A stretch of 64,000 nt of DNA, from NCBI GenBank assembly GCA_964355955.1, contig CAYHFQ010000001.1:103419-167418 (forward strand), read 5' to 3'. Shown one piece after another: positions 14,322 to 44,448 of this stretch; position 1 is the stretch's first letter, and the number at the start of each line of letters is the position of its first letter. This stretch comes from an uncultured Gammaproteobacteria bacterium. Lineage in GTDB: Bacteria; Patescibacteriota; Patescibacteriia; UBA9934. Under the pieces are notes generated by a model. That model searched no databases. It saw nothing but the letters and a program-made list of their open reading frames with translations, and was not told where the DNA came from. The position numbers and the translations under genes were made by a program.

Positions 14322-14480
14322 CTCGGGTCGCTCGCAACCGCCATGTCTCCTCTTCCTAGCTGCGCCTCGTCAACCGTGCCAGCTGGCTCACCTCGTCTGA
14401 CTCGGGGGCTGGCACAGGGCCGAGGCTGGCGTCGTCAGAGGAGACATGGCAGTCGCTCGCTCCTACAAGGCTCAGGCTCA
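14322..14480. repeat. Family A structured intergenic repeat, copy 1
   Basis: About 160 bp element with conserved core CCTCGTCAACCG.GCCAGC.G.CTCACCTCGT.TGACTCGGG.GCTGGC.CAGGGCCGAGGCTGGCGTCGTCAGAGGA flanked by GTCGCTCGC. An internal 13 bp inverted repeat CCATGTCTCCTCT / AGAGGAGACATGG. Four copies in the window. Confidence 0.7.
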
Positions 14481-16794: not shown

Positions 16795-16825
16795 AGGGTA
16801 GATAGTAGAAGGAAGGAAATTAAAG

Positions 16826-16862
16826 GCCGAGTCTCCTGTAGCAGGAGGCTCGGCTTTTTACG
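16826..16862 (+). terminator. Rho-independent terminator
   Basis: GCCGAGTCTCCTG-TAGC-AGGAGGCTCGGC hairpin followed by TTTTT. Confidence 0.65.
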
Positions 16863-16882
16863 ACGACGTTACGCGAGCACAC

Positions 16883-17476
16883 TCAGTTGAGTAGCAGCTT
16901 GAGGTGTCGGAGTTGGTCCTCAAGCTCACGCCACTTTTCGGAGCGGCAGTACAGCTCAGCGCTCAGCAACTCGACACCGCGCATGGCGTAGTTCTGTGGA
17001 CCATACCTCGGTCCACCAAAGTTGATTGGCCGCACCTCGAGCTCCACCACATGGATGAAGTGCTCCGCCAAGCATCGGACCCGTCGCCTGCGCTTCTGGT
17101 CACAGAAGATGGTGACGTCACCACGGTAGTCGGCATTCAGGCTGAGGATGACCTCGCGGAAAAGTTGTAATGACTCCGGCAAGCTCGCCGCTTCTTCCGT
17201 CGCCTTGAACGTAAACCGCTCAGTGTGGCCGAACCGATCGTTTAGTGCTTGCTGCAAATGGGGCAGGAACACCGAGGTCTCTGTCGATTCTGGCCGGTGT
17301 CGACTGGTCACCCTGCTGTTCAGGACAAAGCAGACTTGCTGCTCGACCGACCACTTGGCTACCTCCTCGGCTATCTGCTTGGCTCGTAGCCACAAAACTG
17401 TTTCACCATCGGTATCCCCGACCTTGGGAATACCGGCCAAACACAACAAGACGAGATGACGTTGTTTATTGTGCAT
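16883..17476 (-). CDS. Hypothetical protein X (GC-rich cassette), possible PD-(D/E)xK-like motif
   Basis: ORF from probable ATG at 17474-17476 (MHNKQRHLVLLCLAGIPKVGDTDGE...). A D...D-Q-K arrangement (NADYRGDVTIFCDQK) loosely resembles a PD-(D/E)xK nuclease core. No confident family assignment. Confidence 0.5.
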   Translation of the reverse strand: MHNKQRHLVLLCLAGIPKVGDTDGETVLWLRAKQIAEEVAKWSVEQQVCFVLNSRVTSRHRPESTETSVFLPHLQQALNDRFGHTERFTFKATEEAASLPESLQLFREVILSLNADYRGDVTIFCDQKRRRRVRCLAEHFIHVVELEVRPINFGGPRYGPQNYAMRGVELLSAELYCRSEKWRELEDQLRHLKLLLN

Positions 17477-17604
17477 TTCTGCTCCCTGTAATTTTACCGT
17501 CGCACCTTGCGCCAGTGCTCTAAGGTTGGCAGAATTTAGGCTTTTCGTCAAACAGAAAACCCTCACACCGCGAGGCATGAGAGCCTTCTGGTTGAGGGTT
17601 GAGT

Positions 17605-18091
17605 TCAACGCTTCGTGCTGGTCGATGCGGCTCGCAGCAGCTCGTTGTACAGCGGCCGCAGGTCACCTCGGGCTTGCAGCAAGTAGACGTGCAGGTCGCA
17701 CAGCTGATACCGGTCGTGCCACGCTTCGAGCTCATCCAGGGCTGCACCAGCCGGAGTCTTGATGGCTGTTGTCACCACTACCGCGACAATGCCAACCGCC
17801 TGACAACGTCGCACCTCCGTCGCCACCACCTCAGCGTTGATCGAAGTCAGTTCAAGGAAGACTACCTGCGGCTTGGTCTTCTCCTCGCCGAGCGGTATGG
17901 GCTTGTCTGGTTCGCTCGAGCGGTCCATCACCTGCAACCAGCCGTTCTGCGGCAAAGTTTCGTAGCGAGCGGTCAGGACTACCGGCGTCGAGTACGTCAC
18001 GATGAAGAAGCGGATGGGCTCGGTCTTGAGCAGGTTGACCAGCAGCGGCAAGAAGTCGTGAGCAAAGGCGAGAGTAAAAGGCTTGGAGGAC
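17605..18091 (-). CDS. Hypothetical protein Y (GC-rich cassette)
   Basis: ORF from probable ATG at 18089-18091 (MSSKPFTLAFAHDFLPLLVNLLK...). Co-directional with X, separated by ~130 nt. GC roughly 57% versus ~48-50% in flanking genes. Confidence 0.5.
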
Positions 18092-18227
18092 ATGGGGACT
18101 CCTGTTCGGTTGTGCATCTCGCGAATTACGAGACTAAACAATATACCAAAAATCCCCACTTTCGTCAATCTTCTAGTCGCGGTATACTGTTTAGGAAATT
18201 CGTTATTCACTGGCCGAAATACCGTCT

Positions 18228-19091
18228 ATGAAGATTAGAAAAGCTATCATTCCAGTGGCAGGAATGGGAACAAGATTCCTTCCAGCTACCAAAGCCCAAC
18301 CAAAAGAAATGCTGCCGGTCGTGGATAAGCCAGTCATTCAATACATCGTGGAAGAAGCCGTAGCTGCCGGCATTGAAGAGATTATTTTCGTTACCGCCAT
18401 CGGTAAGCAGGCACTCGAGAATCACTTTGACCGCAACTTCGAGCTCGAATATCGCTTGGAACAAAAAGGCAAACTCAAAGAACTCGAAGCCATTCGCGAG
18501 GTTGGCAAGCTCGCCAAGTTCGCCTTTGTCCGCCAGCAAAAGCCAATGGGTGACGGTCATGCTTTACTCTCCGCCGCCCCTTTTGTCGGTGCTGACGAAG
18601 CCGTGGCTGTGCTCTTCGGTGACGATATTATTACTGGGAAGGTTCCAGCTATCGGCCAGTTAATCGCCACCTACGAAAAATACGGCGACCCTGTCATCGC
18701 CATCCAAGAAATCCCCCGCGACCAAGTTTCCCGCTACGGCGTCATTGGTGGCGTCGAGCTCGATGCTTCTACCTGGCAAATTGACCGCTTTGTGGAAAAG
18801 CCAAAAGTCGAAGAAGCCCCAAGTAACCTAGCCGCTGTTGGTCGCTACATTATCACTCCCGAAATTCTGCGCCGCTTAGAAACTCAAACGCCAGGGAAAG
18901 ATGGTGAAATTCGTCTAGCTGATGCTTTCGAGGCTCAATTGGCCGACAATCGTCCGCTCTACGGCTGCAAATTTGCCGGTCGTCGCTACGACTGTGGCAA
19001 CAAACTCCAATTCATCATTGCCCAGATCGAGCTCGGCCTCACCCATCCCGAAGTCAGTGCAGACTTAAAGGAATATCTAAAGTCGCTCTAA
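18228..19091 (+). CDS. galU: UTP--glucose-1-phosphate uridylyltransferase
   Basis: N-terminal AIIPVAGMGTRFLPATKAQPKEMLPVVDKPVIQY signature of GalU. Confidence 0.9.
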   Translation: MKIRKAIIPVAGMGTRFLPATKAQPKEMLPVVDKPVIQYIVEEAVAAGIEEIIFVTAIGKQALENHFDRNFELEYRLEQKGKLKELEAIREVGKLAKFAFVRQQKPMGDGHALLSAAPFVGADEAVAVLFGDDIITGKVPAIGQLIATYEKYGDPVIAIQEIPRDQVSRYGVIGGVELDASTWQIDRFVEKPKVEEAPSNLAAVGRYIITPEILRRLETQTPGKDGEIRLADAFEAQLADNRPLYGCKFAGRRYDCGNKLQFIIAQIELGLTHPEVSADLKEYLKSL

Positions 19092-19092
19092 T

Positions 19093-20481
19093 ATGAATGC
19101 TAAACGTCTTGCCTCGGGCTTACTTTTATCCAGCCTCCTACTAACATTAGGTATCGGTTGTAGTGGCAAAGACGCGGCCAGCAGTATGCCGGAGGTAAAA
19201 CTTACTTATTGGCGTACTTTTGATAATAGCGACACCATGAGCGACATCATTACCGCCTACACTACACTCCATCCGAACGTCAGTATTGACTACAAAAAAT
19301 TGCGCAGTGACGAATACGATAATGCTCTTTTGCGTGCCTTTGCCGACGGTGCTGGCCCCGATATATTCTCCGTCCACAATAGCGCCATTGGCCAATACCA
19401 AAGCCTCCTTCTCCCTGAACCGGCCACTACCACCATTCCTTACGCTGAAATTCAAGGCACACTCCGCAAGCAAACTGTGGTCATTACTAAGGTTTTGCCG
19501 ACTGTCAGTATTAAGACGCTCAAGAGTGACTTTGTCGACACTGTAGCTGAGGACGTTATTTTCCCTTATCAGCCAGATCCTAAAGTTGCGGCTGAGGACC
19601 GGATTTATGGTTTGCCTTTGTCTGTCGACAGCCTTGCTCTGTATGCTAACAAAGATTTATTAAATGCGGTTAATATTCCTGCGGCTCCAGTTAACTGGCA
19701 AGAATTTCATGATGACGTTGTAAAACTCACAAAACTCGACAGTACTGGCAAAATTATCCAGTCTGGGGCTGGTTTTGGTACCAGTAAAAATGTTAATCGG
19801 GCGGTGGATATTCTTTCTGTGCTCATGATGCAGAACGGGGCCAACATGATTGACGACCGTGGCCGGGTGGCTTTCCAGACTGTACCAACTGGTACCGCTC
19901 AAGGACTTTTCCCAAGTCTTGATGCCACTACTTTCTATACCGACTTTGCTAACCCAACTAAGGATGCTTACACTTGGAACGAATCTTTCCCGTCATCTTT
20001 TGATGCCTTCACGGCTGGCCAAACTGCTTTTTATCTTGGCTACAGCTATGATTTGCCGCTTATTCGGACCGCGGCTCCAAAATTAAACTTCACCATTAAT
20101 AATCTGCCACAAATTCAGAATGGGCGGGAAGTGAATTATCCAAACTACTGGGTGGAAGGTGTTTCGAAAGATACCGAGAATGCCGATTGGGCCTGGGATT
20201 TTATTAATTTTGCCACCCGCAAAGAAAATGTCACCTCCTATTTAACCAAAGCTCAAAAGCCAACCGCTCTCCGTTCACTCATTAGCACTCAACTTGATAG
20301 CGAAGACCTAGGCGTCTTTGCTTCTCAACTTTTACTGGCTAAAAGCTGGTACCACGGTAAGGATACAGCCGCTATGGAAAAGGCTATGAACTCCTTCATC
20401 GACGCTATTCTCCTCGGTACCACGGATCCAACCTCTGCTATCGAGACCACCGCCCGTGTTGTCTCACAAACTTACGACTAG
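19093..20481 (+). CDS. ABC-transporter extracellular solute-binding lipoprotein (family 1, sugar-type)
   Basis: Lipobox LTLGIGCSG. About 460 aa with an SBP-like pattern. Confidence 0.65.
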   Translation: MNAKRLASGLLLSSLLLTLGIGCSGKDAASSMPEVKLTYWRTFDNSDTMSDIITAYTTLHPNVSIDYKKLRSDEYDNALLRAFADGAGPDIFSVHNSAIGQYQSLLLPEPATTTIPYAEIQGTLRKQTVVITKVLPTVSIKTLKSDFVDTVAEDVIFPYQPDPKVAAEDRIYGLPLSVDSLALYANKDLLNAVNIPAAPVNWQEFHDDVVKLTKLDSTGKIIQSGAGFGTSKNVNRAVDILSVLMMQNGANMIDDRGRVAFQTVPTGTAQGLFPSLDATTFYTDFANPTKDAYTWNESFPSSFDAFTAGQTAFYLGYSYDLPLIRTAAPKLNFTINNLPQIQNGREVNYPNYWVEGVSKDTENADWAWDFINFATRKENVTSYLTKAQKPTALRSLISTQLDSEDLGVFASQLLLAKSWYHGKDTAAMEKAMNSFIDAILLGTTDPTSAIETTARVVSQTYD

Positions 20482-20558
20482 GTAACTAAAAATTCACGTC
20501 TCGGCCGCACCCAGCGTCCGGGACGTGAATTTTTATTTCTGGTATACTTCCTACCAGT

Positions 20559-21089
20559 ATGATTGCCATTCGCAAATCTCTCCTCGCTTTAATCCTCGGC
20601 TTTACCTTGGCTACCGGCTTGTTCGGCTTCACGCCACCGGCTAAAGCCATCACTATCGATGGCGAATACACTAAGATCACCCAACTCGGCCTCATCTTCG
20701 CCAACGTCTGCTCCGTAGCTAGACCAGATAACGGCACCGATCCTTGTGCTTGTCGCGGCCAAGGACTCTGCACTGTGGATAACATTCTGCAAGTCATTGT
20801 CAACGTTAGCTACCTCATTCTCGCCCTCAGCGGTTCAGCTGCCCTAATCGCTCTCGTCTACGGCGGCCTCGAATGGGTCATTTCCGCCGGTAATCCCGAA
20901 CGTGTTAAACGCGGCAAAGATGCTTTGAGCGGCGCCGCCATTGGTCTTGCCATCGTCTTTGGTGCTTATGTCGCCATCAACCTCCTCATCAGCGTTCTAA
21001 ATAGCGGCAATATACCCACCACTAACCTCGAAACAACCATCGGTAACGGCGCAGATCAAACTATCACTACTGATACTTCAACACCCTAA
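20559..21089 (+). CDS. VirB2/TrbC-like (T4SS pilin-like) small secreted membrane protein, paralog 1
   Basis: Signal peptide, variable mature region, then a conserved C-terminal helix-loop-helix: LILALSGSAALIALVYGGLEWVISAGNPERVKRGKDALSGAAIGLAIVFGAYVAINLL. Confidence 0.6.
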   Translation: MIAIRKSLLALILGFTLATGLFGFTPPAKAITIDGEYTKITQLGLIFANVCSVARPDNGTDPCACRGQGLCTVDNILQVIVNVSYLILALSGSAALIALVYGGLEWVISAGNPERVKRGKDALSGAAIGLAIVFGAYVAINLLISVLNSGNIPTTNLETTIGNGADQTITTDTSTP

Positions 21090-21090
21090 T

Positions 21091-21474
21091 ATGATTACCA
21101 GACATCAAGCTAAACGTGGCGCCATCATTGTTGCGTACTCTCTAGTCCTACTATTGCCTCTCATTCCAGGTCTGGTTCGTGCTGAAGATACAACCACCGT
21201 CACTCTCTACAACCCACTCGGTATAACCGACGTTCGCGTCATCATTGGTCGCGTCATTAAAGGCATTCTAGGCATTGTTGGATCCCTCGCTTTCGTCATG
21301 TTCATCTACGGTGGCGTACTCTGGATGACGAGTGCTGGTAACGCCGATCGTGTAAAAAAAGGTCAAAGCATCTTGGTCTGGACGGTCCTAGGTCTCGGTG
21401 TAATTTTCTCTAGTTACGCCGCCGTCAACGCTATTCTCAACTCTATCACCACCGGCAGCGTCACAGGAACATAA
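21091..21474 (+). CDS. VirB2/TrbC-like pilin-like protein, paralog 2
   Basis: Conserved block LGIVGSLAFVMFIYGGVLWMTSAGNADRVKKGQSILVWTVLGLGVIFSSYAAVNAIL. Confidence 0.65.
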   Translation: MITRHQAKRGAIIVAYSLVLLLPLIPGLVRAEDTTTVTLYNPLGITDVRVIIGRVIKGILGIVGSLAFVMFIYGGVLWMTSAGNADRVKKGQSILVWTVLGLGVIFSSYAAVNAILNSITTGSVTGT

Positions 21475-21518
21475 CAATGTGCTATAATTAAATTATACAT
21501 TCACCTTAACATTTTACT

Positions 21519-21926
21519 ATGTCGAAAGTCTTCTCACGTCTCGTCATGGGACTTGGTCTCGCTACACTTCTCGTGTTGCCACTCGGCCTCTCCCACATCG
21601 GCTTTGTCCACGTTGCTCACGCCCAACAATTACAAACTAGCGATTTGCTTACCACCGGCTTCGGCGATACCGCTGGCCTTGGTCAAGCAGACTTAAAGAC
21701 GACTATTGGCAACCTCATCCGCGTCATGCTCGGTTTCCTCGGTGTCGTCGCAGTCATCATCATTCTCCTTGGTGGTTTCAAATGGATGACCGCTGGTGGC
21801 AACGACGAGAAAGTGCAAGAAGCTAAGAACCTCATCATCGCTGGTATCATCGGCTTGGCCATCATTCTCTCCGCCTTTGCCATCGCTAGCTTCGTCATCA
21901 GCTCCATCATCGGCGCCACACAGTAA
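21519..21926 (+). CDS. VirB2/TrbC-like pilin-like protein, paralog 3
   Basis: Conserved block LGFLGVVAVIIILLGGFKWMTAGGNDEKVQEAKNLIIAGIIGLAIILSAFAIASFVI. Confidence 0.65.
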   Translation: MSKVFSRLVMGLGLATLLVLPLGLSHIGFVHVAHAQQLQTSDLLTTGFGDTAGLGQADLKTTIGNLIRVMLGFLGVVAVIIILLGGFKWMTAGGNDEKVQEAKNLIIAGIIGLAIILSAFAIASFVISSIIGATQ

Positions 21927-21990
21927 ACCTCAATTTCATTTAGATTCTCGAATGACGGTCGGGCTGCAGTTGGTCTGCAACCTCTCCGCT

Positions 21991-22383
21991 ATGCGAAAAT
22001 TCTTCCTCGCCAGTTTACTGGCTGTTTCTTTGTTAGTGCCTCAGCTTACTTTAGCCGCCGACTCAGCTGCTACTAGCTATGGCTTAGAGTCGAGCGGTGG
22101 TGCCGCTGGTCTTCTCACGAATTCCGCAGAAAATACCAATATTACTACCTTTATCGGCTCGTTCATCATCAAGCCTATTCTCGGCTTGGTCGGACTTGGC
22201 TTCTTCATTCTCATGATCTACGGCGGCGTCCTCTGGATGGCTGCTGGCGGCAACGAAACTATCGTCAAAAAAGCCCAAAGCATCCTCACTAGCGCAGTTA
22301 TTGGTGCCATTATTATCATTGCCGCTTACGCCCTCACCAATGCCGTGCTCAACGCTATCACCGCTGGCAATATCTCTGGTTAA
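21991..22383 (+). CDS. VirB2/TrbC-like pilin-like protein, paralog 4
   Basis: Real start ATG 21991 (MRKFFLASLLAVSLL signal peptide). The track ORF 21796..22383 has a spurious upstream extension that overlaps paralog 3. Conserved block LGLVGLGFFILMIYGGVLWMAAGGNETIVKKAQSIL. Confidence 0.65.
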   Translation: MRKFFLASLLAVSLLVPQLTLAADSAATSYGLESSGGAAGLLTNSAENTNITTFIGSFIIKPILGLVGLGFFILMIYGGVLWMAAGGNETIVKKAQSILTSAVIGAIIIIAAYALTNAVLNAITAGNISG

Positions 22384-22392
22384 ACGCTCAGT

Positions 22393-22809
22393 ATGAAAAA
22401 AATTGCCTACGCTTTTCTAGCCAGTCTACTTCTCCTTCCATCCTTCACTTTCGCTGCTGATCCGCCAGCCACACCATCAACCACCAATAGCTCTATTTAC
22501 AGTTCTGGCCTCAACACCGGCGCTAACGCTGCCTACGACAATGCTCTACCTAACGCGGATCTCCTCGGCGTCATTACCCTTCTCATCAAAGCCGTGCTCG
22601 GTCTTCTCGGTGTCGTCTTCCTCGTGCTCATCATCTACGCTGGCATTCTCTGGCTAACTGCTGCCGGCAACGAAGACCGTGTCAAAAAAGCTCAGGGTAT
22701 TCTCAAGAACGCAGTTATCGGTATCTTCATCGTCATAACTGCTTACGCTATCAGTTATTTCATCCTAACAAATATTTCCAATTCCATGACACAAATTTAT
22801 AGCCCATAA
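22393..22809 (+). CDS. VirB2/TrbC-like pilin-like protein, paralog 5
   Basis: Signal peptide MKKIAYAFLASLLLLPSFTFA. Conserved block LGLLGVVFLVLIIYAGILWLTAAGNEDRVKKAQGILKNAVIG. Confidence 0.65.
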   Translation: MKKIAYAFLASLLLLPSFTFAADPPATPSTTNSSIYSSGLNTGANAAYDNALPNADLLGVITLLIKAVLGLLGVVFLVLIIYAGILWLTAAGNEDRVKKAQGILKNAVIGIFIVITAYAISYFILTNISNSMTQIYSP

Positions 22810-22876
22810 GTACCACTTATCGTCCCTCACACTTCATGTTATAATGCTACTGTCTTAAAAATTTTAACCCTTCGCT

Positions 22877-23266
22877 ATGAAGTTAAAGAACATTCTCGTG
22901 GCTGCGGCGCTCTTCGCCCTGCCCTTCGCTCCAATGCTAGTTACCACAACGCACGCTGCCGGTATCGACGTCACAACGAAGCTTGGCACTGTTGGTAGTG
23001 GAGCTGGTTACTCAGCTCAAACTGCCGACTCACTCACTAATACCATCGGCGTACTTATCCAAACTCTTCTCGGTTTCCTCGGTGTCGTCTTCCTCATCCT
23101 TATCATCTACGCTGGTCTTCTTTGGATGACTGCCGCTGGTAACGAAGATAAAGTTAAGAAAGCCCAGGGCATTCTCATGAGCTCCGTCATTGGCCTCATC
23201 ATCTTGCTCTCCGCTTACGCTATCAGCTACTTCGTCATCAGCAACATTCAAAGCTCCATTCAGTAA
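22877..23266 (+). CDS. VirB2/TrbC-like pilin-like protein, paralog 6
   Basis: Conserved block LGFLGVVFLILIIYAGLLWMTAAGNEDKVKKAQGILMSSVIG. Followed by terminator hairpin AGAGCCTGCGGGCTCTTTTT at ~23284-23303. Confidence 0.65.
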   Translation: MKLKNILVAAALFALPFAPMLVTTTHAAGIDVTTKLGTVGSGAGYSAQTADSLTNTIGVLIQTLLGFLGVVFLILIIYAGLLWMTAAGNEDKVKKAQGILMSSVIGLIILLSAYAISYFVISNIQSSIQ

Positions 23267-23377
23267 ACTCACTTACACACAAAAAGAGCCTGCGGGCTCT
23301 TTTTCGTTGTAAACAAAAAGTGGCCCCGGGAAGTAAATCCCGGGCGCCACGTCTGCCGTACGGTTCTTGCTACTTCA

Positions 23378-23899
23378 TCAACGGCAGGAGATGAAGGAGA
23401 TGCTGCGACTGTTCGGATTGGTCGTGGCCGAGTAGCAGGTCGTCGGCAACTTGGTCGCCTTGATGACGATGGCCAGACCGTTCTCTATCACCGGTGGGAT
23501 GCCGGCGTTGTCGTAGTGGTCGCCATAGGCAGTGATGGCTTCTTGCCCATCCGTGACGCCCACATAGTACTTGTCGCCATAGTGGTCGGAGACCAGTACG
23601 GACGTCATCCGGCCGTTGATCCGCGCCACGATCGGCACCGGTGCCCCGTGGTCCATCTTGAAGACGGTCACGGTATCACACCCGGTGTAGTGCGGTACGA
23701 CCATCCTCACCTCCTTCGGCACCCGCAACATGAAGATGCTAGGGCCGAGCTTGGAGAAGTCAGATGGCTCGACCTGCAAGAGACGGCAGGACCTCTGCTC
23801 GATCGCGATCTGCTGCGTCGGCGACAAGCCGCTGAACTCAGAGGCCTTGATACCACCGACGAGGAACAGAACAAGGGAAAGAATCATCGTAGACTCCAT
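23378..23899 (-). CDS. Secreted hypothetical protein (GC-rich island)
   Basis: Signal peptide MILSLVLFLVGG. GC-rich codon usage. A minus-strand terminator hairpin GGCGCCCGGGATTTACTTCCCGGGGCC plus T-run lies just downstream (23320-23350). Confidence 0.6.
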   Translation of the reverse strand: MESTMILSLVLFLVGGIKASEFSGLSPTQQIAIEQRSCRLLQVEPSDFSKLGPSIFMLRVPKEVRMVVPHYTGCDTVTVFKMDHGAPVPIVARINGRMTSVLVSDHYGDKYYVGVTDGQEAITAYGDHYDNAGIPPVIENGLAIVIKATKLPTTCYSATTNPNSRSISFISCR

Positions 23900-24010
23900 G
23901 GCACTCGGCCAACGGTTGTGAATGGAAGTTATTTTTGCTCGGCTCCTCTCTACCCGTTAAGGGAAAGGACCAAACGCGATGCGCGGGGTGGGCTAGTCCC
24001 CCTTTCTGCC

Positions 24011-24643
24011 CTACTCGACGTTGTCGTCTACAATCTTGGGCGGCGGTGCCGGCTTGTCCTGGGTCTTGACCCCCGTGGACTTGCCGCTCTGCTCGCCCTG
24101 ATTGTTGAGCATCTGCTCCGCCTGGTCCATGGCGTCGAGTGCCTGGGCCGTGCTCAGGTGGCCGATGCCGCCGTAGTAGCCACCGATGCCGTCCGGCCAA
24201 CGGTTGACGCTATTCGCCTGCGCCTCACCGACCGGATCGGACACCCGCTTGATGACGTCGCCGTCGATCGAACAGGTGACGTTGCCGTCGCCCTCCAAGC
24301 TCTTGAAGCAGGTCTTGTAGGCTTCGAGGTGCGCCTCAACCTCCAGCTCGTGCTTCTTCTGATCGAACGTCTGTTCGTTCAGCGCCAGCAACTGGTCGGT
24401 CTCGGCCTGGGTGACCTGGACGTTCGCCAACGTGGTCTTCACGTTGTTGTCCGTCAGAGCGGTCAGGGCCTTGACCCCAATGCAGACCGTCCGCGGGGTC
24501 GTCGCTCCGTTCACTCCGTCCACCACCAACTTGGTGTGGCCGAAGGGCGGGCAGTCGATGTCCGAGTGGACGTTGATGTTGGCGTCCACGAGGGTGATGG
24601 GCTCGGCCGCGAGGGCCAGGGAAAGTGCGAGTGAAAGGATCAT
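24011..24643 (-). CDS. Secreted hypothetical protein (GC-rich island)
   Basis: Likely start ATG 24641-24643 (MILSLALSLALAAEP), a signal peptide similar to that of the neighbouring 23378..23899 product. Four Cys residues (C29, C52, C110, C123) in the mature region. Confidence 0.55.
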   Translation of the reverse strand: MILSLALSLALAAEPITLVDANINVHSDIDCPPFGHTKLVVDGVNGATTPRTVCIGVKALTALTDNNVKTTLANVQVTQAETDQLLALNEQTFDQKKHELEVEAHLEAYKTCFKSLEGDGNVTCSIDGDVIKRVSDPVGEAQANSVNRWPDGIGGYYGGIGHLSTAQALDAMDQAEQMLNNQGEQSGKSTGVKTQDKPAPPPKIVDDNVE

Positions 24644-24817
24644 TACAGTCTCTTGGTGAATGGCCAAAGCGGCCAGTTGGTGAGGTATCGCCGCCTATTT
24701 CCTCGGGAATCGAGGCTTTTGACGGACCTAGTAATATAGCAAAAAAACTGCCTTTTGTCAATCACTCACCAACTTTCTTGGCTCTAATTAGCCACAATTT
24801 AGCACTTAATCTGAAGC

Positions 24818-24849
24818 TCTCCCCCAGCCATGGGGAAGTTGGAGGGGGC
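24818..24849. repeat. Palindromic ~33 bp element, intergenic copy (reverse orientation)
   Basis: CTCCCCCAGCCATGGGGAAGTTGGAGGGGGC is the reverse complement, with one change, of the element found inside five CDSs (31473, 45264, 57747, 59425, 62764). Confidence 0.7.
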
Positions 24850-25037
24850 TTTTAGTAACTTCGCAAAGTCAAAACAGCTGGACAAAAACCCAAAAATATG
24901 CTAAATTTCCCGGTCAGCAAACTGCAAATTTGCTGCCGTTTCCCCGTTTTTTCACAACGACGAACCCATTCCGGGCCCACCGTCTTCAAGTTAGTTAACG
25001 TCCACAACGCCCTCCAAAGGGCATTACAGGAGCCATC

Positions 25038-27119
25038 ATGGCCGCCAAATTTGACGAACTCTCCCGCGACATCGACCTCAACCTCAACCAGAGGGGGTTC
25101 GACTCCACTCTGCACAGCATCAAGAACAAGGAGGGTAACCTCGTCCTCGACGCCATCGGCGAAACTGCCGTGGAAAACGTCATGCATGAGGTGGCCACTT
25201 CCCTCGACGCAACCGAGATCATCAAGCTCGGAACCGTCACGGACCTCCTCCTGGCGCTCATTTTGGCTCTGCCTGACGTCAGCCGCAAGTACCTGGCCAA
25301 CTTGCTCGCCAAGCAGGTGAAGAAGGTCCTGAGCGACAAGTCCCTCGTCTCCGACGTGACGGCTGCTATGCTGATCGAAGCCCTGGATCAGGGTAACGCC
25401 ATGGTCATGACCATCCTCGACAACGCTGGTCTGCAGCCCGAGGACATGCGGGCCGCGTTGCTCGACAAGTTCAGCGTGGACATCAAGGAACTCAAGGTCT
25501 GGTTGGCCGGCAAGCTCCCCGCCATCATCGGCGGTCACAGCAGCGGCGGAACCGACCCAGGTCACGACACCAGCCACGGCCCCACCGCGGTTGCCGTCGC
25601 CGCCCCGGTCCTCAACCGCCACCGGGCACAGTTGAATGGCCGCTTGGACATCATGAAGGGTTGGGATAGCCCTGTGCAGGACCTGCTGACCGCCCTGCAA
25701 AATGGTGCAGCTATCGAGGCCCATGGTGACCCGAGCAAGCTTGATGGTACGCCCCTGCCCAAAGACCAACGTCAATGGCTCGGTCTCGCTCATGGCTTCG
25801 TCAAGGGAATCGAGATCATGGTGGAAGATGACGGAGCCCGTGCGACCCTAAAAGCGTCGCTCGAGCAGCTCATCGCCAAGGGCGTGACCAAGGAAGAGTT
25901 GAGTGCCAACCCGCTCGACAAAGCCGGTCACTTCATCCACGGCGTGGTGAAAATCGGTCACAGTGACAAAATGACCGCCATCCTTGACCGGGCGGACGAA
26001 GCCATCGACCTGACAGAGGCCAGGGCTCACCTGCGCCGCTTCATGGGTAAGGACAAACCCACTGTCATCATCGACGTCCCGGAGAAAGACGCCGACGGTA
26101 ATGTAATCGTCCTGTCCAAGGAACAGCAGGTGGAGCGTAAGAAGGAAGCAGAAGAAAAGCGGCTGGCCAACCGCACCAAGTTCGAAGTTGTCACTGAAGA
26201 GGCAGAGGCTTGGAGCAGGTGGGGTCTCAAAAAGATCAAGCAGGCAGTCGGCATCTACGTTGGCAGTGCTGTGACCATCTGCCTGGTCGCCACCGTCGAT
26301 ACCTTCCAGACCCATCTCCTGGAAGGCTGGCTCGCCATTGCGCACAACGTGGTGTTGGGTCTGGCCGTCTGCGGCCTGTTCACGAGTTCCATCGTGTTGA
26401 TCATCGCCCGTCTCGGGCTCTCGGTTCTCGACGCACCGCTGAAGGTCATCGCCAAGTTCATCAAGACGATACCCGGCCAGGAAGACTTCACGTTTGAGGA
26501 TGCCCCCATCTTCAAGCAGGCCAACCTCATCACCATCGTCGTCTTCGGGCTCGGGGTGCTGTTCACGGTTATCGCCATCTTCTGCGCCGTGGGCGGAGGT
26601 TCCGTCATGCTGCCCATCCTGGCCATCCTCGGAGTCTTCTCCTTGGGTGCTTGGGGCGAGCTACAGAAACGTTTCTTCCATGCCAAGTGGTCGGGGCACG
26701 CTCCGGCTGCTGGTCATGATGCTCATCCGACAGCTCCGGCTGGAGGCGGACACGCTCATGATCCTGGTGAGGAGCGCAAGCTCCAGAAGGCAGAGGTCAA
26801 CTTCCTCACCGGACTCAAGGTGTTCTACGTCTTGATGGCTGTGTTCTTCGGAACTCTGATCATCACCGGTGTAGTGACTGCGGGTTACCGCTACCACCAA
26901 ACAAGTCTGGATAAGGCAGCAGCCGCCGAAGTCACAGTCACCACGGAGCGCACCGCGGACTGCGCCGAGGTCACGGCCACTCTGACCAAGTGGGCCGGCG
27001 TGTGGAACGTCAAGAACAACTACCCGGATGAAGGGAGTCGGTTCAGCCACATGTGCGAAGAGACACAGAGCGAGAAGATCGGAACCGCTTGCGCCAAGCA
27101 GGCCTCTCTCTGCCGCTAG
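25038..27119 (+). CDS. Large hypothetical membrane protein (693 aa; ~400 aa soluble N-terminal region, five predicted TM helices, Cys-rich C-terminal tail)
   Basis: Long ORF with GC-rich third positions. TM helices around IYVGSAVTICLVATV, VVLGLAVCGLFTSSIVLIIARL, ITIVVFGLGVLFTVIAIFCAV, MLPILAILGVFSLGAWG and VFYVLMAVFFGTLIITGVV. Antisense ORFs (24852..25793 and others) are taken as GC-driven artefacts. Confidence 0.6.
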   Translation: MAAKFDELSRDIDLNLNQRGFDSTLHSIKNKEGNLVLDAIGETAVENVMHEVATSLDATEIIKLGTVTDLLLALILALPDVSRKYLANLLAKQVKKVLSDKSLVSDVTAAMLIEALDQGNAMVMTILDNAGLQPEDMRAALLDKFSVDIKELKVWLAGKLPAIIGGHSSGGTDPGHDTSHGPTAVAVAAPVLNRHRAQLNGRLDIMKGWDSPVQDLLTALQNGAAIEAHGDPSKLDGTPLPKDQRQWLGLAHGFVKGIEIMVEDDGARATLKASLEQLIAKGVTKEELSANPLDKAGHFIHGVVKIGHSDKMTAILDRADEAIDLTEARAHLRRFMGKDKPTVIIDVPEKDADGNVIVLSKEQQVERKKEAEEKRLANRTKFEVVTEEAEAWSRWGLKKIKQAVGIYVGSAVTICLVATVDTFQTHLLEGWLAIAHNVVLGLAVCGLFTSSIVLIIARLGLSVLDAPLKVIAKFIKTIPGQEDFTFEDAPIFKQANLITIVVFGLGVLFTVIAIFCAVGGGSVMLPILAILGVFSLGAWGELQKRFFHAKWSGHAPAAGHDAHPTAPAGGGHAHDPGEERKLQKAEVNFLTGLKVFYVLMAVFFGTLIITGVVTAGYRYHQTSLDKAAAAEVTVTTERTADCAEVTATLTKWAGVWNVKNNYPDEGSRFSHMCEETQSEKIGTACAKQASLCR

Positions 27120-27251
27120 ATTAGCCCGGCAGAATCAACCATCAACAATTAACCCAAAAGGGGAACACTACTCGTGAGAGCGGTGAGCATATAGTCTTCC
27201 ATAGTGGAATATGAACTGTATGTCTCATCGCTCTCTTCTTTTTGTGGTTTT

Positions 27252-27536
27252 TTAGTCGTCCTTTGTGGCTGGATGTTCAGTATTAATTTGAGCCTCATGA
27301 AATTGTTTGATGAGAGCTAGATAGTTAGTGTAAGTTATTTGCTCGATGTGACCAGTGACGGCAATATCACGAGCGAAGAGAGCAGAAAAGTGGTCAGGAC
27401 CACAGGAGGCTTCGATGGAATATTGCTGACCAGCAATAAGGCCATCGCCGAGGATGGGCGCGACGGGGAAACCGAGGGTAATGAGTTGGCGATGAAAGGA
27501 GGTGAAGAGTTCGTTGTTGATGGTGATGGTAGTCAT
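27252..27536 (-). CDS. Hypothetical protein (94 aa)
   Basis: ORF only. No motif recognised. Confidence 0.4.
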   Translation of the reverse strand: MTTITINNELFTSFHRQLITLGFPVAPILGDGLIAGQQYSIEASCGPDHFSALFARDIAVTGHIEQITYTNYLALIKQFHEAQINTEHPATKDD

Positions 27537-27598
27537 ACTTAGAGATCATGGCATGAAGCGTGGGAAAAAGCGAGAGAGTATGAGACAATGGATAAAGT

Positions 27599-28828
27599 AT
27601 GAAAACTACTACAAAATTTAAAATTCTTGGGTTACTGAAGGGCGGGTACTTTTATTTGCCGATTTTTACGTTGTACGCCACTGATCATGGGATTACCATG
27701 AGTGTGGTGGTGTTTAGTCAGGCATTTTATAGCGTGTCACAGTTTTTGTTTGAGGTGCCAACTGGCGTGCTGGCTGATAGGTTTGGGCAGAAGACTTCGG
27801 TGTTGATTGGTTATACGCTCGAGGCTTTGGGTATTTTGACGGTGGTGTTGTGGCCGACGACGCTTGGCCTGTATGCCTGTTATGCAATTGGTGGTTTGGC
27901 GGCATCATTTTTGAGTGGGAGTGAAGAAGTTATTTTGTTTGAGGCTTGTAAGAAAGAGAAGACTAAGTATGCGCAAGTGTATGGGGCGTTTTTAAGTAAT
28001 ATTACTTTTGGCATGATGCTGTCCGCATTGCTTGGTGGTTTTGCTTTTGCCTTGTTTGATCGGGCAGCCTTTGTACCGTTACTTGTAGCCACGACGTTGG
28101 CGTTGTTATTGGCGGCCATATTAGCGACGACGTTTAAGATGCCAGCAAAAGCGTTCAAGCCTGGGAGTAAAGAGGCTAAATTGGCGGCGGAAAGTGGCGG
28201 TTCGGTGGCAATTCTTAAGAAGAGTTTGGCTTTGATGCGCGAGGACGATACTCTGTGGCACCTGATGATTGTGGGAGCGCTGACGCTGACAGGGGATTAC
28301 TTCCTGTATAGCGTGTACCAACCAGCCTTTTTGGCAGTGCTGGTGCCGGCGATTTGGTTTGGTGCGGCGTTGTCGATTGGTTCCGTGGTTAACATGATAT
28401 TGATACGTTATGTTTATGTGTTTGAACGTTACCTGACACTCGATAAGATTATTCTGTTTGTTAACTTATTCATAGCACTCGGCTATCTCGGCATGTCGAG
28501 TACTGGCAGCCCGTTCCTCATGTTAGTAGCGTTTATTGCGGCGCAGAGTTTATTTGGACTGGAGACGCCGGTAGTTAGTGATTATATTAACGAGCGGACG
28601 ACGCCAGATGTGCGGAGTACGGTATTATCTGGCATTTCTTTTACGAATCGCTTTGTGAACGTATTCTTGCGGGCTGGTTTGGCGTTGGTTGTTGGCTTGG
28701 CGGGGATTAAGCTGGGCTTGTTTGCGCAAGGTTGTTACTTATTTGTGGGCGTGTTGTTTGGGTATTACTTGCTGGTAAAGTGTGGGTGTATTCACCGGAT
28801 TACGATGCATGATGGTAAGGCGGTATAG
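27599..28828 (+). CDS. MFS transporter
   Basis: Twelve predicted TM segments. MFS motif A-like GVLADRFGQK between TM2 and TM3. Confidence 0.75.
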   Translation: MKTTTKFKILGLLKGGYFYLPIFTLYATDHGITMSVVVFSQAFYSVSQFLFEVPTGVLADRFGQKTSVLIGYTLEALGILTVVLWPTTLGLYACYAIGGLAASFLSGSEEVILFEACKKEKTKYAQVYGAFLSNITFGMMLSALLGGFAFALFDRAAFVPLLVATTLALLLAAILATTFKMPAKAFKPGSKEAKLAAESGGSVAILKKSLALMREDDTLWHLMIVGALTLTGDYFLYSVYQPAFLAVLVPAIWFGAALSIGSVVNMILIRYVYVFERYLTLDKIILFVNLFIALGYLGMSSTGSPFLMLVAFIAAQSLFGLETPVVSDYINERTTPDVRSTVLSGISFTNRFVNVFLRAGLALVVGLAGIKLGLFAQGCYLFVGVLFGYYLLVKCGCIHRITMHDGKAV

Positions 28829-31076: not shown

Positions 31077-31247
31077 GTCGCTCGCAGTCGGCCTGGACTC
31101 TCTCTTCTCCCCGCAGGGCGAGGACGCGGCGCCGCAGGTCGTCAACCGCGCCAGCCGTCTCACCTCGTATGACTCGGGCGCTGGCACAGGGCCGACCTTT
31201 GCTTGGCGCAAGAGTTCCAGGCCAACCGCTCGCTCCTACAAGGCTCA
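31077..31247. repeat. Family A structured intergenic repeat, copy 2
   Basis: Begins GTCGCTCGC and ends GCTCGCTCCTACAAGGCTCAG. Conserved core CGTCAACCGCGCCAGCCGTCTCACCTCGTATGACTCGGGCGCTGGCACAGGGCCGA. The outer inverted repeat GTCGGCCTGGACTCT / AGAGTTCCAGGCCAAC differs in sequence from the other copies but stays complementary. The 3' end overlaps the HK stop codon. Confidence 0.65.
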
Positions 31248-32300
31248 GACCTTGAGTGGGAGTTTGAGGGTGACAGTGGTGCCGTGGCCGGGGGTACTGA
31301 GCATAGTGACGTCGCCACCGATATCGGCCATGATGGATTGGACAATGGCGAGGCCGAGGCCGGAGCCGCCGGTAGCGCGAGAACGGCTTTGTTCAACGCG
31401 CCAGAAACGGTCGAAGATGTGTTCGAGGTCGGGAGGGGCGATGCCAATACCGGTGTCTGTTACCGTAATAAAGCCCCCTCCAACTCCCCCATGGCTGGGG
31501 GAGGGTTGTTCAGTGCCGATGGTGACGTCGACACTACCGTTTTCTTTATTGTAGATGATGGCATTGCTGATGATGTTGCTGAGCGCGACGTCGAGGAGGT
31601 CGCGGTTGGCTGAGATTTCGATGAGGTGAGGAGTTGGTGCCAGGTGCAGTGTAATGTGATGCGCTTCGGCTAAGGATTTGAGGCGGTCGACGGCGGCGGT
31701 GACGAGATCCACGAGGTTGATGAGGCTTGCGGGGCGAGGTGGGGAGTTGTGCTCGTCGAGTTTGGAGAGCAGGAGAAGATCGGCGACGAGGCGGCGCATG
31801 CGTTCGATTTCTTCCAGGTGGCTGTCGATACGGGCTGTGACGACAGGGTCGGTAGCGACCAGGCGTTCGTTTTCGAAGTCAGTTTTAAGAATGGCGAGAG
31901 GCGTGCGGAGTTCGTGGCTGGCGTCGCTTAAGAATTTCTTTTGGGCGCTGTAGGCGGCGCGGATTGGTTTGATAGTGGAACCAGCGACGAGGTAGCTAAC
32001 TAAGCCGGCGATGATGAGGAGAATGCCGTTGACGACAACGAGAGTCTGGATGAGGTCGGAACGGACGTCTTCCGCAGTGGGCACAGGGACAAGCTCGGAA
32101 CGCTCAAGGTCAAAACGGAGGCCGTGGAAACGGTTTTGGAGGCGCTCGCTAAAAATAGTGCGGGTGACGGCACTCGAAATAATGAGAATGGCGGCGAGGA
32201 CGACAATGTAGAGAATTGTCAGCCAGAAACGAGTAGCGCCTAAGCGTTCCTCAAACGAGACGGTAGCCTTTTCCCCAGACTGTTTGGATGCGTTTGGCAT
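31245..32300 (-). CDS. Sensor histidine kinase (HisKA + HATPase_c), two TM helices
   Basis: H-box SHELRTPL, N-box NAIIYN, G1 box DTGIGI, G2 box GGSGLGL. Probable start ATG 32300, overlapping the response-regulator 3' end by ~50 nt. The palindromic in-frame element EQPSPSHGGVGGGF sits just before the G1 box. Confidence 0.85.
   Translation of the reverse strand: MPNASKQSGEKATVSFEERLGATRFWLTILYIVVLAAILIISSAVTRTIFSERLQNRFHGLRFDLERSELVPVPTAEDVRSDLIQTLVVVNGILLIIAGLVSYLVAGSTIKPIRAAYSAQKKFLSDASHELRTPLAILKTDFENERLVATDPVVTARIDSHLEEIERMRRLVADLLLLSKLDEHNSPPRPASLINLVDLVTAAVDRLKSLAEAHHITLHLAPTPHLIEISANRDLLDVALSNIISNAIIYNKENGSVDVTIGTEQPSPSHGGVGGGFITVTDTGIGIAPPDLEHIFDRFWRVEQSRSRATGGSGLGLAIVQSIMADIGGDVTMLSTPGHGTTVTLKLPLKV
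31473..31505. repeat. Palindromic ~33 bp element inserted in frame in the histidine-kinase gene
   Basis: GCCCCCTCCAACTCCCCCATGGCTGGGGGAGGG. Core hairpin CTCCCCCA-TGGC-TGGGGGAG. Open in all six frames. Read on the minus strand as PSPSHGGVGGG. Confidence 0.75.
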
Positions 32301-44359: not shown

Positions 44360-44448
44360 TGGCGGAAGGGGAGAGATTCGAACTCTCGAAGCCTTGCGGC
44401 TTACGCGATTTCGAGTCGCGCGCACTAGACCAGCTATGCGACCCTTCC
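44360..44448 (-). tRNA. tRNA-Ser (CGA)
   Basis: Minus-strand GGAAGGGTCGCATAGCTGGTCTAGTGCGCGCGACTCGAAATCGCG...GGCTTCGAGAGTTCGAATCTCTCCCCTTCCGCCA: long variable arm (type II), anticodon loop CTCGAAA, encoded CCA. Confidence 0.85.

Follow-up and report, generated by a model that had tools for sequence, protein, structure and literature searches.

Hypervariable surface-protein cassettes can be swapped by homologous recombination within conserved flanking sequence; the S-layer locus (slpA) of Clostridioides difficile and the O-antigen and capsule loci are examples, and O-antigen loci are typically AT-rich. Highly expressed bacterial genes are in turn subject to translational selection on synonymous codons, and fast protein evolution is unusual for such genes. 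For Patescibacteria, arrays of 2-11 pilin genes have been described that lie, together with T4SS components, near the replication origin (PMC12102498).

The locus described here consists of three genes (A, B and C; Table 1) within a window of 64 kb, the whole stretch of DNA that was analysed. Like the slpA, O-antigen and capsule cassettes, it has a fixed chromosomal position with conserved flanks, alleles that are far more diverged than the genome, mosaic and discordant in their gene trees, a composition unlike that of the genome, and products that are (here by prediction) in the envelope. Different from these cassettes, the shift in composition is towards GC and restricted to synonymous sites, the proteins are small and without known family, and C is a membrane protein with a cytoplasmic domain that is hypervariable too; no sequence or fold link between A, B or C and S-layer proteins was found. 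With codon-biased highly expressed genes the cassette shares the preference for C-ending NNY codons, strong differences between codon families, tolerance of GGT and CGT, a near-consensus promoter, a good ribosome-binding site, a structured leader and a strong terminator; unlike such genes, which normally evolve slowly, the presumably well expressed A, B and C are the fastest-evolving in the region. The six-gene PF18895 array next to the cassette, ~20 kb from dnaA, fits the VirB2-like arrays of Patescibacteria as described in PMC12102498, but A, B and C are not pilins and vary, while the pilins are conserved within the clade (79-96% identity); a term search of the article text found no A/B/C-like trio. 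We consider it likely that the GC-rich stretch is native to a lineage of Candidatus Uhrbacteria and was not imported: an envelope cassette of three genes, specific to the clade, with a fast-evolving and, judged by its sequence features, strongly expressed trio.

Genomic position, composition and regulatory signals

Eight lineages were compared: the window's own (W), L004, L005, L011, L012, L013, L014 and L016; the family members of the relatives carry the name Candidatus Uhrbacteria (CPR bacteria). In all five lineages with contigs that reach the pilin array (W, L004, L005, L011 and L014) the cassette is directly downstream of this six-gene array, and the order is pilin array, A(-), B(-), C(+) in W, L004, L005, L010/L011 and L014. 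The shorter contigs of L012, L013 and L016 have at least B and C, as does a further short contig, L015. The last pilin has a Pfam match to PF18895 (E 3.7e-9) and the other five have precomputed matches to this family.

Table 1 Features of the cassette and its surroundings (positions in the window)
Feature	Position	Strand	Basis
Block of ~10 kb including the cassette, inverted versus relatives	16800..27250	.	GC skew and PGI position
VirB2-like 'T4SS_pilin' (PF18895) array, six genes	20559..23266	+	Pfam and precomputed PF18895 matches
Pilin genes of the array	20559-21089, 21091-21474, 21519-21926, 21952-22383, 22393-22809, 22877-23266	+	
Terminator-like hairpin and T-run 3' of last pilin gene	23273..23312	+	Inverted repeat I18, sequence reading
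Intrinsic terminator of B-A transcription unit	23325..23344	-	Terminator scan, RNA fold
Gene A, 169-aa secreted protein (predicted)	23378..23887	-	ORF, GC3 0.82
Gene B, 210-aa secreted protein (predicted)	24011..24643	-	ORF, GC3 0.88
Conserved 5' leader of B, stem-loops	24650..24732	-	Cross-lineage nucleotide conservation
Promoter of B, TTGACA-17-TATATT with TG extension	24733..24761	-	Promoter scan
Palindromic repeat element between the two promoters	24812..24852	.	Repeat families D4, I1, I2
Promoter of C, TGGACA-17-TAAATT	24879..24907	+	Promoter scan, conservation
Conserved 5' leader of C	24908..25037	+	Alignments, RNAalifold
Gene C, 693-aa membrane protein	25038..27119	+	ORF, GC3 0.77
Long-stem intrinsic terminator of C	27176..27243	+	Alignment, RNA fold

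On the other side, C abuts the PGI gene in L004, L005, L011, L012, L014, L015 and L016; PGI is 3' of C in every lineage with sufficient flank except W, where it is found at 15724-16794. Compared with the relatives, this genome has the ~10-kb block in inverted orientation, with a breakpoint just past the C terminator. GC skew is about +0.3 over the window and zero to negative at 17-27 kb, and dnaA and dnaN at 878-3771 define the plus strand as the leading strand; both the skew reversal and the abrupt look of the right border of the GC-rich patch arise because the block is inverted.

The first-pass annotation had described an abrupt composition break at ~23.3-27.1 kb, and sliding GC analysis identifies this as the strongest in the window: 23300-27120 has a GC content of 0.587, the remaining window 0.488. 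When all segments of 3.8 kb were scanned, the one with the highest GC began at 23301; the best segment not overlapping the patch reached 0.543 (mean of all segments 0.487, sd 0.027). The whole window is compositionally patchy (0.39-0.61 GC across 1-kb segments) and its other GC-rich patches are mostly minus-strand genes. The GC excess of the patch is almost wholly in third codon positions: the GC3 values of A, B and C are 2.5-3.7 standard deviations above those of the 50 other window genes (mean 0.54, sd 0.09, maximum 0.70), GC1 and GC2 of the three genes are ordinary and the spacers are not GC-enriched (0.475 between B and C, 0.424 in the stretch 3' of C). The long antisense ORFs of the patch, for example 23516-24634 (+) with a GC1 of 0.84, are frame-mirror artefacts and exist because the high GC3 of A, B and C is mirrored across frames.

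The B-C spacer has a predicted near-consensus sigma-70-type promoter in each direction. The B promoter matches 11 of 12 consensus positions and its core is invariant in all eight lineages; the C promoter is kept in all eight too, and in L004, L013, L014 and L016 it has TTGACA, a TG extension and a -10 hexamer of the TATA type. This conservation of the promoter cores persists although the C proteins fall to 18% identity. The palindromic repeat between the promoters is missing from the spacers of the relatives, has further copies elsewhere in the window, is an insertion specific to this lineage and is probably not part of the cassette function. Both leaders are predicted to fold (B: -25.7 kcal/mol, z -2.3; C: -13 kcal/mol, z -2.8). 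In the C leader, a stem-loop near the 5' end pairs CAGCAAA with TTTGCTG (in two lineages CAACAAA with TTTGTTG); a GACG/CGTC stem and the ribosome-binding site AGGAG are present too, and RNAalifold gives six pairs, two of them with compensatory changes. A and B are presumably transcribed as one unit; the fold at its terminator (23300-23360, minus strand) has -28.8 kcal/mol (z -5.1). The C terminator is common to the five close lineages (27165-27250: -36.5 kcal/mol, z -6.7).

Codon usage and presumed expression

GC3 of the cassette exceeds that of the flanks in W (0.77-0.88 versus at most 0.70), L004 (0.76-0.86 versus 0.37-0.54), L012 (0.76-0.82 versus 0.40-0.55), L016 (0.86 versus 0.64) and in L014, a relative with 63% GC (0.97 versus 0.69-0.90). 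Ordinary genes of the window track the replication strand, with fractions of C among NNY and of G among NNR codons of 0.24 and 0.59 on the leading and 0.72 and 0.25 on the lagging strand; the cassette is high in both (0.83 and 0.77). The same two-sided pattern is found in the trigger factor of this genome (0.62 and 0.69), which we take to be highly expressed, as in bacteria generally. It is the only comparison gene of this presumed kind and is less extreme than the cassette (GC3 0.65), and the pilin genes, possibly also strongly expressed, do not have the codon pattern of the cassette.

Enrichment of GC-ending codons ranges from a lnOR of 0.29 (Gly) to 3.0 (Ile) between amino-acid families (Woolf Q = 339, p ~1e-61); GTT, CCT and CTT are purged, whereas every lineage keeps GGT and CGT. 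Because the enrichment is so unequal between families, codon-level selection is favoured over a uniform GC pressure. The GC-ending codons appear to be maintained by codon-usage selection in strongly expressed genes, and promoter quality, ribosome-binding site, leaders and codon pattern together suggest strong expression of the trio. Other variable genes, with no function assigned, at the far end of the ~10-kb block are GC3-rich too, an observation that speaks equally for a recombination-linked GC bias and for expression.

Protein divergence and mosaicism

Among the five close lineages, A is the least variable (47-86% identity), B is intermediate (32-62%) and C is the most variable (28-61%). 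The flanking genes are 70-100% identical: four enzymes at 70-96%, a solute-binding protein at 90-92% and an NTP transferase at 99-100%. dN/dS is 0.15-0.78 for the cassette and 0.01-0.12 for the flanks, with the values of the most diverged segments being rough because, with so skewed a composition, synonymous differences in the cassette come close to saturation. The amino acids of the trio change several-fold to tens-fold faster than those of the neighbouring genes.

C is a mosaic built by recombination among diverged alleles: maximum chi-square breakpoints were found in five triplets (none of 1000 permutations reached the observed value), C of L005 and L011 share 70-97% identity in alignment columns 241-700 and at most 27% in columns 1-220, and C of W resembles L005 in its N-terminal part and L004 in its transmembrane part. 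A, B and C give trees that conflict with one another and with those of the flanks.

Such strong evidence of intragenic recombination and conflicting trees, together with the GC3-rich variable genes elsewhere in the block and the tendency of recombining bacterial genes towards higher GC (PMC4450053), could mean that the cassette is native and recombining but that its GC3 excess stems mainly from GC-biased gene conversion at a hot spot and not from codon selection. We regard this as unlikely: GC1 and GC2 are not raised despite weakly constrained proteins, the spacers are not GC-rich, the enrichment is highly uneven among codon families with GGT and CGT escaping, and the trigger factor has the same two-sided preference. 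Mosaicism and tree incongruence would also be compatible with import of alleles from GC-richer clade members (L013, L014 and L016, with 61-65% GC), the GC content being the background of the donors; the GC3 of 0.77-0.88 in genomes with 49% GC is indeed near the L014 background. However, alleles of the low-GC genomes are far closer to each other (in the ranges given above for C and A) than those of W are to L014 (18-25%), the L014 cassette is itself above the L014 background, and the spacer of low-GC genomes stays low in GC, making such a switch very unlikely.

Predicted products and origin of the cassette

All three gene models of the first annotation stand, including the two minus-strand proteins with near-identical signal peptides: A and B both start with a signal-peptide-like MILSL... 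sequence that is hydrophobic and followed by an A-x-A-type motif, and hydrophobic start and motif are also present in the A and B proteins of the relatives. Each protein has four invariant cysteines in its family alignment, and beyond the signal peptide paralogy between B and A is undetectable. Searches of Pfam, PHROG, NCBIfam, PADLOC and PDB sequences gave no match to A, and neither B nor C had a match in the databases searched, for C including Pfam. Mean pLDDT values of AF2 models are 37.1 (A) and 44.8 (C), too low for the models to be of use in assigning a function. The families are small, with six members for A, four for B and eight relatives of C in an exhaustive search of 1.84 billion representative proteins; no homologue of A, B or C was found outside the small clade among these representatives or among 5.8 billion word-indexed proteins, and phage, plasmid, IMG/VR and JGI matches to the cassette were all absent.

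For C, a hydropathy scan upholds the annotated soluble N-terminal domain (~400 aa, helical), five transmembrane segments (read at ~403-420, 431-461, 495-518, 523-542 and 587-617) and cysteine-containing tail (75 aa with four cysteines, of which 642, 685 and 692 are invariant). Hydropathy and charge distribution predict a cytoplasmic N-terminal part, a cytoplasmic His-rich loop and an external tail. The variability of C reaches into the predicted cytoplasmic domain, which is not expected under simple surface-antigen selection.

A polytopic protein with at least five transmembrane segments, encoded near VirB2-like pilin genes, resembles VirB6/TrbL (PF04610), and C had been suggested as a possible VirB6-like channel component, here a T4SS subunit that would use the neighbouring pilins. 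PMC12102498 reports VirB6 homologues to be scarce or absent in some Patescibacteria classes and suggests extreme sequence divergence, which would favour this proposal. Yet none of the eight members of the C family matches TrbL/VirB6, or meaningfully any other Pfam family, at E <= 5; C has a large N-terminal domain, predicted to be cytoplasmic, that holds the bulk of the protein, only tiny predicted external loops instead of a large one, and no adjacent virB4; neither virB4 nor virD4 nor virB3 is present in the 64-kb window. A VirB6-like role of C is therefore very unlikely.

The first-pass annotation had further proposed horizontal acquisition from a high-GC donor, for example an actinobacterial host, with the GC content as a relic of the donor. 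The break in composition does exist, and other CPR groups have no homologues of the three proteins, but this reading is largely refuted and has only a slight residual probability. The cassette follows the same pilin array in every lineage that reaches it, with B and C in three more, and its ordinary-GC spacers have clade-conserved promoters, with the C terminator conserved in the five close lineages. With a pS of 0.3-0.7, the flanking genes have diverged at most of their synonymous sites, so that a GC3 relic would be expected to have ameliorated, and GC3 is still 0.75-0.9; in the relative with 63% GC it again exceeds the background (0.97 versus ~0.8), and the GC-ending bias is specific to codon families. 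The cassette has neither an integrase nor a tRNA or direct repeats at its flanks, the anticipated best matches in Actinobacteria or other high-GC taxa do not exist among the 1.84 billion representatives, and no homologue was found in phages or plasmids. An assembly chimera of two organisms' DNA, for which only the abrupt composition change would speak, is refuted: three contigs, each from a different assembly, match the window at 100% identity over both borders, the same junctions occur in other lineages (four with the same order, pilin array into cassette), and flanking terminators and promoters are contiguous and conserved.

While the high-GC donor is unsupported, the other half of that proposal, an envelope module tied to the pilin array, remains plausible for the native cassette. 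A and B would be abundant surface or secreted components and C their membrane partner, with the cysteine-containing tail outside and the large variable domain inside; at the cell surface, the trio would act together with the pilin array. Contact with host or partner cells, or targeting of the trio by phages, may impose diversifying selection, and GC-biased gene conversion at the recombining locus may add to the codon selection.

Composition, gene content and position of the cassette

Between positions 23300 and 27120, GC content is 58.7%, compared with 48.8% outside this stretch; of all 3.8-kb intervals, the one starting at 23301 has the highest value, and the best non-overlapping one reaches at most 54.3%. 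The compositional break seen in the first-pass annotation is thus real, and it is not a product of misassembly, a possibility raised at the time: contigs from three assemblies (two from ENA, one from Logan) are 100% identical to the window over both borders. The three gene models proposed for this stretch are also correct: two genes for secreted proteins, A and B, and one gene for a membrane protein, C, which we refer to as the cassette (see table). The overlapping antisense ORFs (23516-24634 on the plus strand, 24852-25793 on the minus strand, and others) have their GC peak at codon position 1 and are frame-mirror artefacts of the high GC content at third codon positions (GC3).

GC3 is 0.82 for A, 0.88 for B and 0.77 for C, compared with a mean of 0.54 (sd 0.09, maximum 0.70) for the 50 other genes of the window, which corresponds to z values of 2.5-3.7. 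First and second codon positions are ordinary and the spacers have no excess (0.475 between B and C, 0.424 downstream of C); the GC excess is confined to third positions.

Features of the window discussed in the text
Feature	Position	Strand	Remarks
dnaA and dnaN	878-3771		
PGI gene	15724-16794		abuts C in relatives
Inverted block	~16.8-27.25 kb		~10 kb
Two variable genes of unknown function	16883-18210	-	far end of inverted block
Pilin array	20559-23266		six PF18895 genes
Terminator of B-A unit	23344-23325	-	fold z -5.1
Gene A	23378-23887	-	secreted, signal-peptide-like N-terminus
Gene B	24011-24643	-	secreted, signal-peptide-like N-terminus
B promoter	24761-24733	-	TTGACA-17-TATATT, TG extension, 11/12 consensus positions
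Palindromic element, intergenic copy	24812-24852		between B and C promoters
C promoter	24879-24907	+	TGGACA-17-TAAATT
Gene C	25038-27119	+	polytopic membrane protein
C terminator	~27176-27243	+	long stem, -36.5 kcal/mol, z -6.7
Palindromic element, copies within ORFs	31468-31507, 45260-45299, 57742-57781, 59420-59459, 62748-62787		
Intergenic direct repeats	14330-14461, 31131-31195, 45919-46050, 55253-55384		up to 132 nt, 70-92% identical
33-nt repeats	14447, 31220, 46038		adjoin the intergenic direct repeats
79-nt repeat	44457-44535, 63835-63913		84% identical; by tRNA-Ser (44360-44448) and tRNA-Leu (63746-63826)
Shorter relatives of 79-nt repeat	10369-10463, 60159-60255		near tRNA-Cys and tRNA-Gly

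The position of dnaA and dnaN identifies the plus strand as the leading strand; nearly the whole window has a GC skew of about +0.3. The flanking genes have close relatives in database entries named Candidatus Uhrbacteria. Upstream of the cassette lie genes for an NTP transferase and a solute-binding lipoprotein, followed by six VirB2-like PF18895 'T4SS_pilin' genes; VirB2-like pilin arrays of 2-11 genes, and type IV secretion genes near dnaA, are on record for Patescibacteria (PMC12102498). The order pilin array, A, B and C, with A and B on the minus and C on the plus strand, is the same in all five lineages with sequence reaching the array (the window's own, L004, L005, L010/L011 and L014). 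Four shorter contigs (L012, L013, L015 and L016) carry at least B and C, and none of the contigs recovered has an empty site.

Wherever a contig reaches far enough, C is directly followed by PGI; the only exception is the window. Its PGI gene is found elsewhere, indicating that a block with the cassette (two genes of unknown function, NTP transferase, solute-binding protein, six pilins, A, B and C) is inverted relative to the seven related contigs in which C abuts PGI. Inside this block the GC skew drops to between 0 and -0.2 and plus-strand genes have C-rich third positions, as an inversion predicts; since the skew is still flipped, the inversion looks recent. The GC patch thus has its right edge at a breakpoint, just past the C terminator. 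A search for inverted repeats at the breakpoints found none.

At its far end, the block has two genes of unknown function with a GC3 of 0.66-0.70 that vary between lineages. The 162-aa gene has a counterpart with 44% identity in L005, and in L011 an unrelated gene takes its place; the 231-aa gene is 71% identical to that of L011, and L005 has a methyltransferase gene instead. Variable genes of this Uhrbacteria clade may generally be GC3-rich.

Regulatory regions and repeats

The spacer DNA between B and C is more conserved than the coding regions, and the cores of its two divergent promoters, which resemble each other, are kept in 8/8 lineages, even where the C proteins are only 18-27% identical. 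L004, L013, L014 and L016 have TTGACA with a TATA-type -10 hexamer as C promoter. The leaders of both B and C are conserved; in the C leader, two lineages have A-U in place of G-C in the 5'-proximal stem-loop, a compensatory change, and a second stem has two compensatory pairs. The ribosome-binding site of C is AGGAG, and the C terminator is conserved in the five close lineages.

A palindromic element of about 36-40 nt, CCCTCCCCCAGCCATGGGGGAGTTGGAGGGGGC, is present in six copies in the window. The copy between the promoters of B and C is found only in the window's own lineage. The five others lie within ORFs, in frame and without stop codons, in HisKA, Wzy_C, NUDIX, PGA_cap and LTD proteins, and each adds about 14 residues (for example QPSPSHGGVGGGFI). 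In this insertion into coding genes the element is similar to the palindromic elements of Rickettsia. The exact palindromic core was found in loci of this strain alone; in L016, C is followed by a related hairpin. In L012, the spacer between B and C (8841-9224 of that contig) has a different palindromic insertion, CCCTAAGGGTTGG...CCCTTAGGGTTG, at the same position between the promoters, and palindromic elements seem to insert preferentially in this gap. The window contains further repeat families, partly next to tRNA genes (see table). About 4-7 kb past its 3' end, on contig L017 of the same genome (3378-5721), 2.3 kb with a GC content of 0.51 have no called genes; this stretch could hold an RNA gene.

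Codon usage and the source of the GC excess

Codon usage in this genome depends extremely on the replication strand. In leading-strand genes, 0.24 of NNY codons end in C and 0.59 of NNR codons end in G (C3 about 0.05-0.13); in lagging-strand genes these fractions are 0.72 and 0.25 (C3 0.55-0.61). The cassette prefers C and G in both orientations (0.83 and 0.77). Trigger factor, a protein generally highly expressed in bacteria, has the same two-sided preference in this genome (0.62 and 0.69; contig L018) and serves here as the single, presumed highly expressed, reference gene. The pilin genes do not have the cassette pattern. Most other GC-rich patches of the window are minus-strand genes, for example at 6.8-9.7, 31-33, 35.5-36.9, 39-41, 44.6-47.5 and 56.4-57.5 kb.

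When five lineages are pooled and compared with their flanks, the enrichment of GC-ending codons is small for Gly (lnOR 0.29), Ala (0.53) and Glu (0.63) and large for His, Asn, Tyr, Gln, Cys, Phe and Ile (2.1-3.0), and this heterogeneity across codon families is strong (Woolf Q = 339, 17 df, p ~1e-61). GGT and CGT are kept in every lineage; GTT, CCT and CTT are purged. A uniform GC-favouring process, be it foreign origin, mutational bias or pure biased gene conversion, predicts near-equal log-odds across families as well as raised GC1, GC2 and spacer GC. Neither is seen: the log-odds are unequal and GC1, GC2 and spacer GC are not raised. We thus consider codon-usage selection, acting on strongly expressed genes, the probable source of the GC-ending codons. 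Near-consensus promoters, the AGGAG site, 5' stem-loops and strong terminators are consistent with, and suggestive of, high expression. In genomes with such extreme strand-dependent codon usage, a synonymous-site signature of this kind can mark a special gene class.

GC-biased gene conversion may have contributed to the cassette GC3 in addition to codon selection: recombination in bacteria correlates with it (PMC4450053), and the variable genes rich in GC3 at the far end of the inverted block would likewise be in line with it.

Horizontal acquisition from a high-GC donor, the origin suggested in the first-pass annotation, is not supported. The GC3 excess of the cassette over its flanks recurs in the related lineages: 0.76-0.86 vs 0.37-0.54 in L004, 0.82-0.87 vs mostly 0.47-0.67 in L005, 0.75-0.91 vs mostly 0.44-0.65 in L011, 0.76-0.82 vs 0.40-0.55 in L012, 0.86 vs 0.64 in L016 and, in L014 with its 63% GC, 0.97 vs 0.69-0.90. 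Between these lineages, 30-70% of the synonymous sites in flanking genes are different, a divergence over which the composition of a donor would have eroded; that GC3 is still above each background speaks for a lasting force specific to this locus and against a relic. Homologues outside the clade are missing too: a word-indexed search of 5.8 billion proteins identified two C homologues and an exhaustive profile search of 1.84 billion representatives a C family of eight members (six for A, four for B), all placeable ones being in the same syntenic locus of Uhrbacteria or related contigs. The protein searches found no homologue in any high-GC taxon, tblastn of C against phage and plasmid collections gave no match, and the A and C profiles found no confirmed relatives in IMG/VR or among JGI metagenome contigs. 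The cassette neighbours have no integrase, transposase or other mobility domains, no repeats flank the cassette, and the nearest tRNA genes lie at 11.2 and 44.4 kb in the window. Together with the ordinary spacer GC and the fixed position, this disposes of a misleading clue: in a CPR genome, an abrupt rise in GC would usually be taken for host-derived DNA, which is not the case here. It also means that genomes of 49% to 63% GC can all keep a synonymous-site signature above their background.

Divergence, mosaicism and possible function

Among the five close lineages, amino acid identities of the neighbouring proteins are 99-100% for the NTP transferase, 90-92% for the solute-binding protein, 87-96% for PGI, 81-94% for a pyridine-nucleotide oxidoreductase, 76-90% for an aminotransferase, 70-94% for an AhpC-type redoxin and 82-95% for the last pilin. 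The cassette proteins are far more diverged, with 47-86% for A, 32-62% for B and 28-61% for C. In the cassette, Nei-Gojobori dN/dS ratios are 0.15-0.40 (A), 0.50-0.78 (B) and 0.37-0.66 (C), compared with 0.01-0.08 in flanking housekeeping genes and 0.05-0.12 in the last pilin; the cassette values are rough for the most diverged segments, where pS is about at the saturation level expected for such skewed composition. An equal age of cassette and flanks, considered on the basis of similar dS, was dropped as cassette pS is near saturation.

C is a mosaic. In the window, its N-terminal part resembles that of L005 (47-78% in 40-column windows) and its transmembrane part that of L004 (46-85%); over alignment columns 241-700 the C proteins of L005 and L011 reach 70-97% identity, compared with at most 27% over columns 1-220, and L004 and L005 have a common tail (72-79%). 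In maximum chi-square tests of five triplets of C, the observed value was exceeded in 0/1000 permutations. The nearest-neighbour relations are in conflict among the three genes A, B and C, as well as with those of the flanks. Fast change, mosaic C and conflicting relations thus define a recombining, fast-evolving locus between conserved anchors, and the cassette is the only such part of an otherwise conserved pilin locus near the replication origin. With conserved flanks (70-100%), diverged mosaic alleles (28-86%) and a fixed site, it resembles hypervariable recombining surface cassettes. A reverse-transcriptase domain, which a diversity-generating retroelement would have nearby, was not found among the window ORFs scanned, and no cassette sequence is repeated elsewhere in the window as a template/variable repeat pair.

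The N-termini of A and B start with MILSL, followed by a hydrophobic core and an A-x-A-type motif, and each protein has four Cys that are invariant among relatives; paralogy between the two is not detectable. The 693-aa C has a soluble, helical N-terminal part of about 400 aa and, as already predicted from the sequence, five hydrophobic segments between residues 403 and 617 (~403-420, 431-461, 495-518, 523-542 and 587-617 in our reading of a Kyte-Doolittle scan). Its positive charges fall in the loops that an N-in/C-out topology places inside, consistent with the positive-inside rule. The 75-aa tail has four Cys, three of them invariant in 8/8 family members.

A, B and C have no meaningful match in Pfam, PHROGs, NCBIfam or PADLOC, and profile searches of PDB sequences gave only chance-level ones. 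AlphaFold2 models were unusable (mean pLDDT 44.8 for C from a 3-sequence alignment and 37.1 for A from 6 sequences), and the low-confidence C model found nothing below E = 3.8 in PDB with Foldseek. Rfam had nothing near gathering scores on 22800-27700. The suggestion that C is a VirB6-like channel failed in both sequence and neighbourhood: the TrbL/VirB6 profile (PF04610) matches 0/8 C family members at E <= 5 and the window C not at E <= 0.1, and the window ORFs scanned contain no VirB4, VirB6, VirD4 or VirB3 domains, which leaves being a polytopic membrane protein as the only feature in common. C is not kin to the pilins either (hhalign of the C family with the last pilin: probability 0.3%), and the T4SS_pilin profile has no significant match in A, B or C (best E = 0.3, in 2/8 C family members). 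The broader suggestion of an envelope or host-interaction module beside the pilins survives as an envelope module.

The signal-peptide-like N-termini, conserved Cys pairs and topology suggest that the products are exposed at the surface. From this anatomy and the evolutionary behaviour, A and B would be abundant secreted or surface proteins stabilised by disulfides, and C their membrane partner with its Cys-containing tail outside; the trio may act with the adjoining pilin array at the cell surface and may be under diversifying selection from hosts, partners or phages. Such a surface module does not account for the hypervariability of the cytoplasmic domain of C. A more specific, and in our view rather improbable, model is an undescribed three-protein recognition system of one Uhrbacteria clade, in which the pilin array is coupled to a membrane protein and to two secreted proteins that are abundant and Cys-bonded. 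Allele combinations, kept diverse by frequency-dependent selection and recombination, would set which host or partner cell or phage is engaged; the whole cassette, including the cytoplasmic domain of C, would co-evolve as specificity unit, with codons tuned for very high expression.

The cassette is a three-gene unit that is restricted to one clade, fixed in position, biased in its codons, mosaic and fast-evolving. It follows the familiar theme of hypervariable surface cassettes with protein families that lack known relatives, and A, B and C are the obvious first candidates for determinants of host specificity or phage interaction in this yet-uncultured group.
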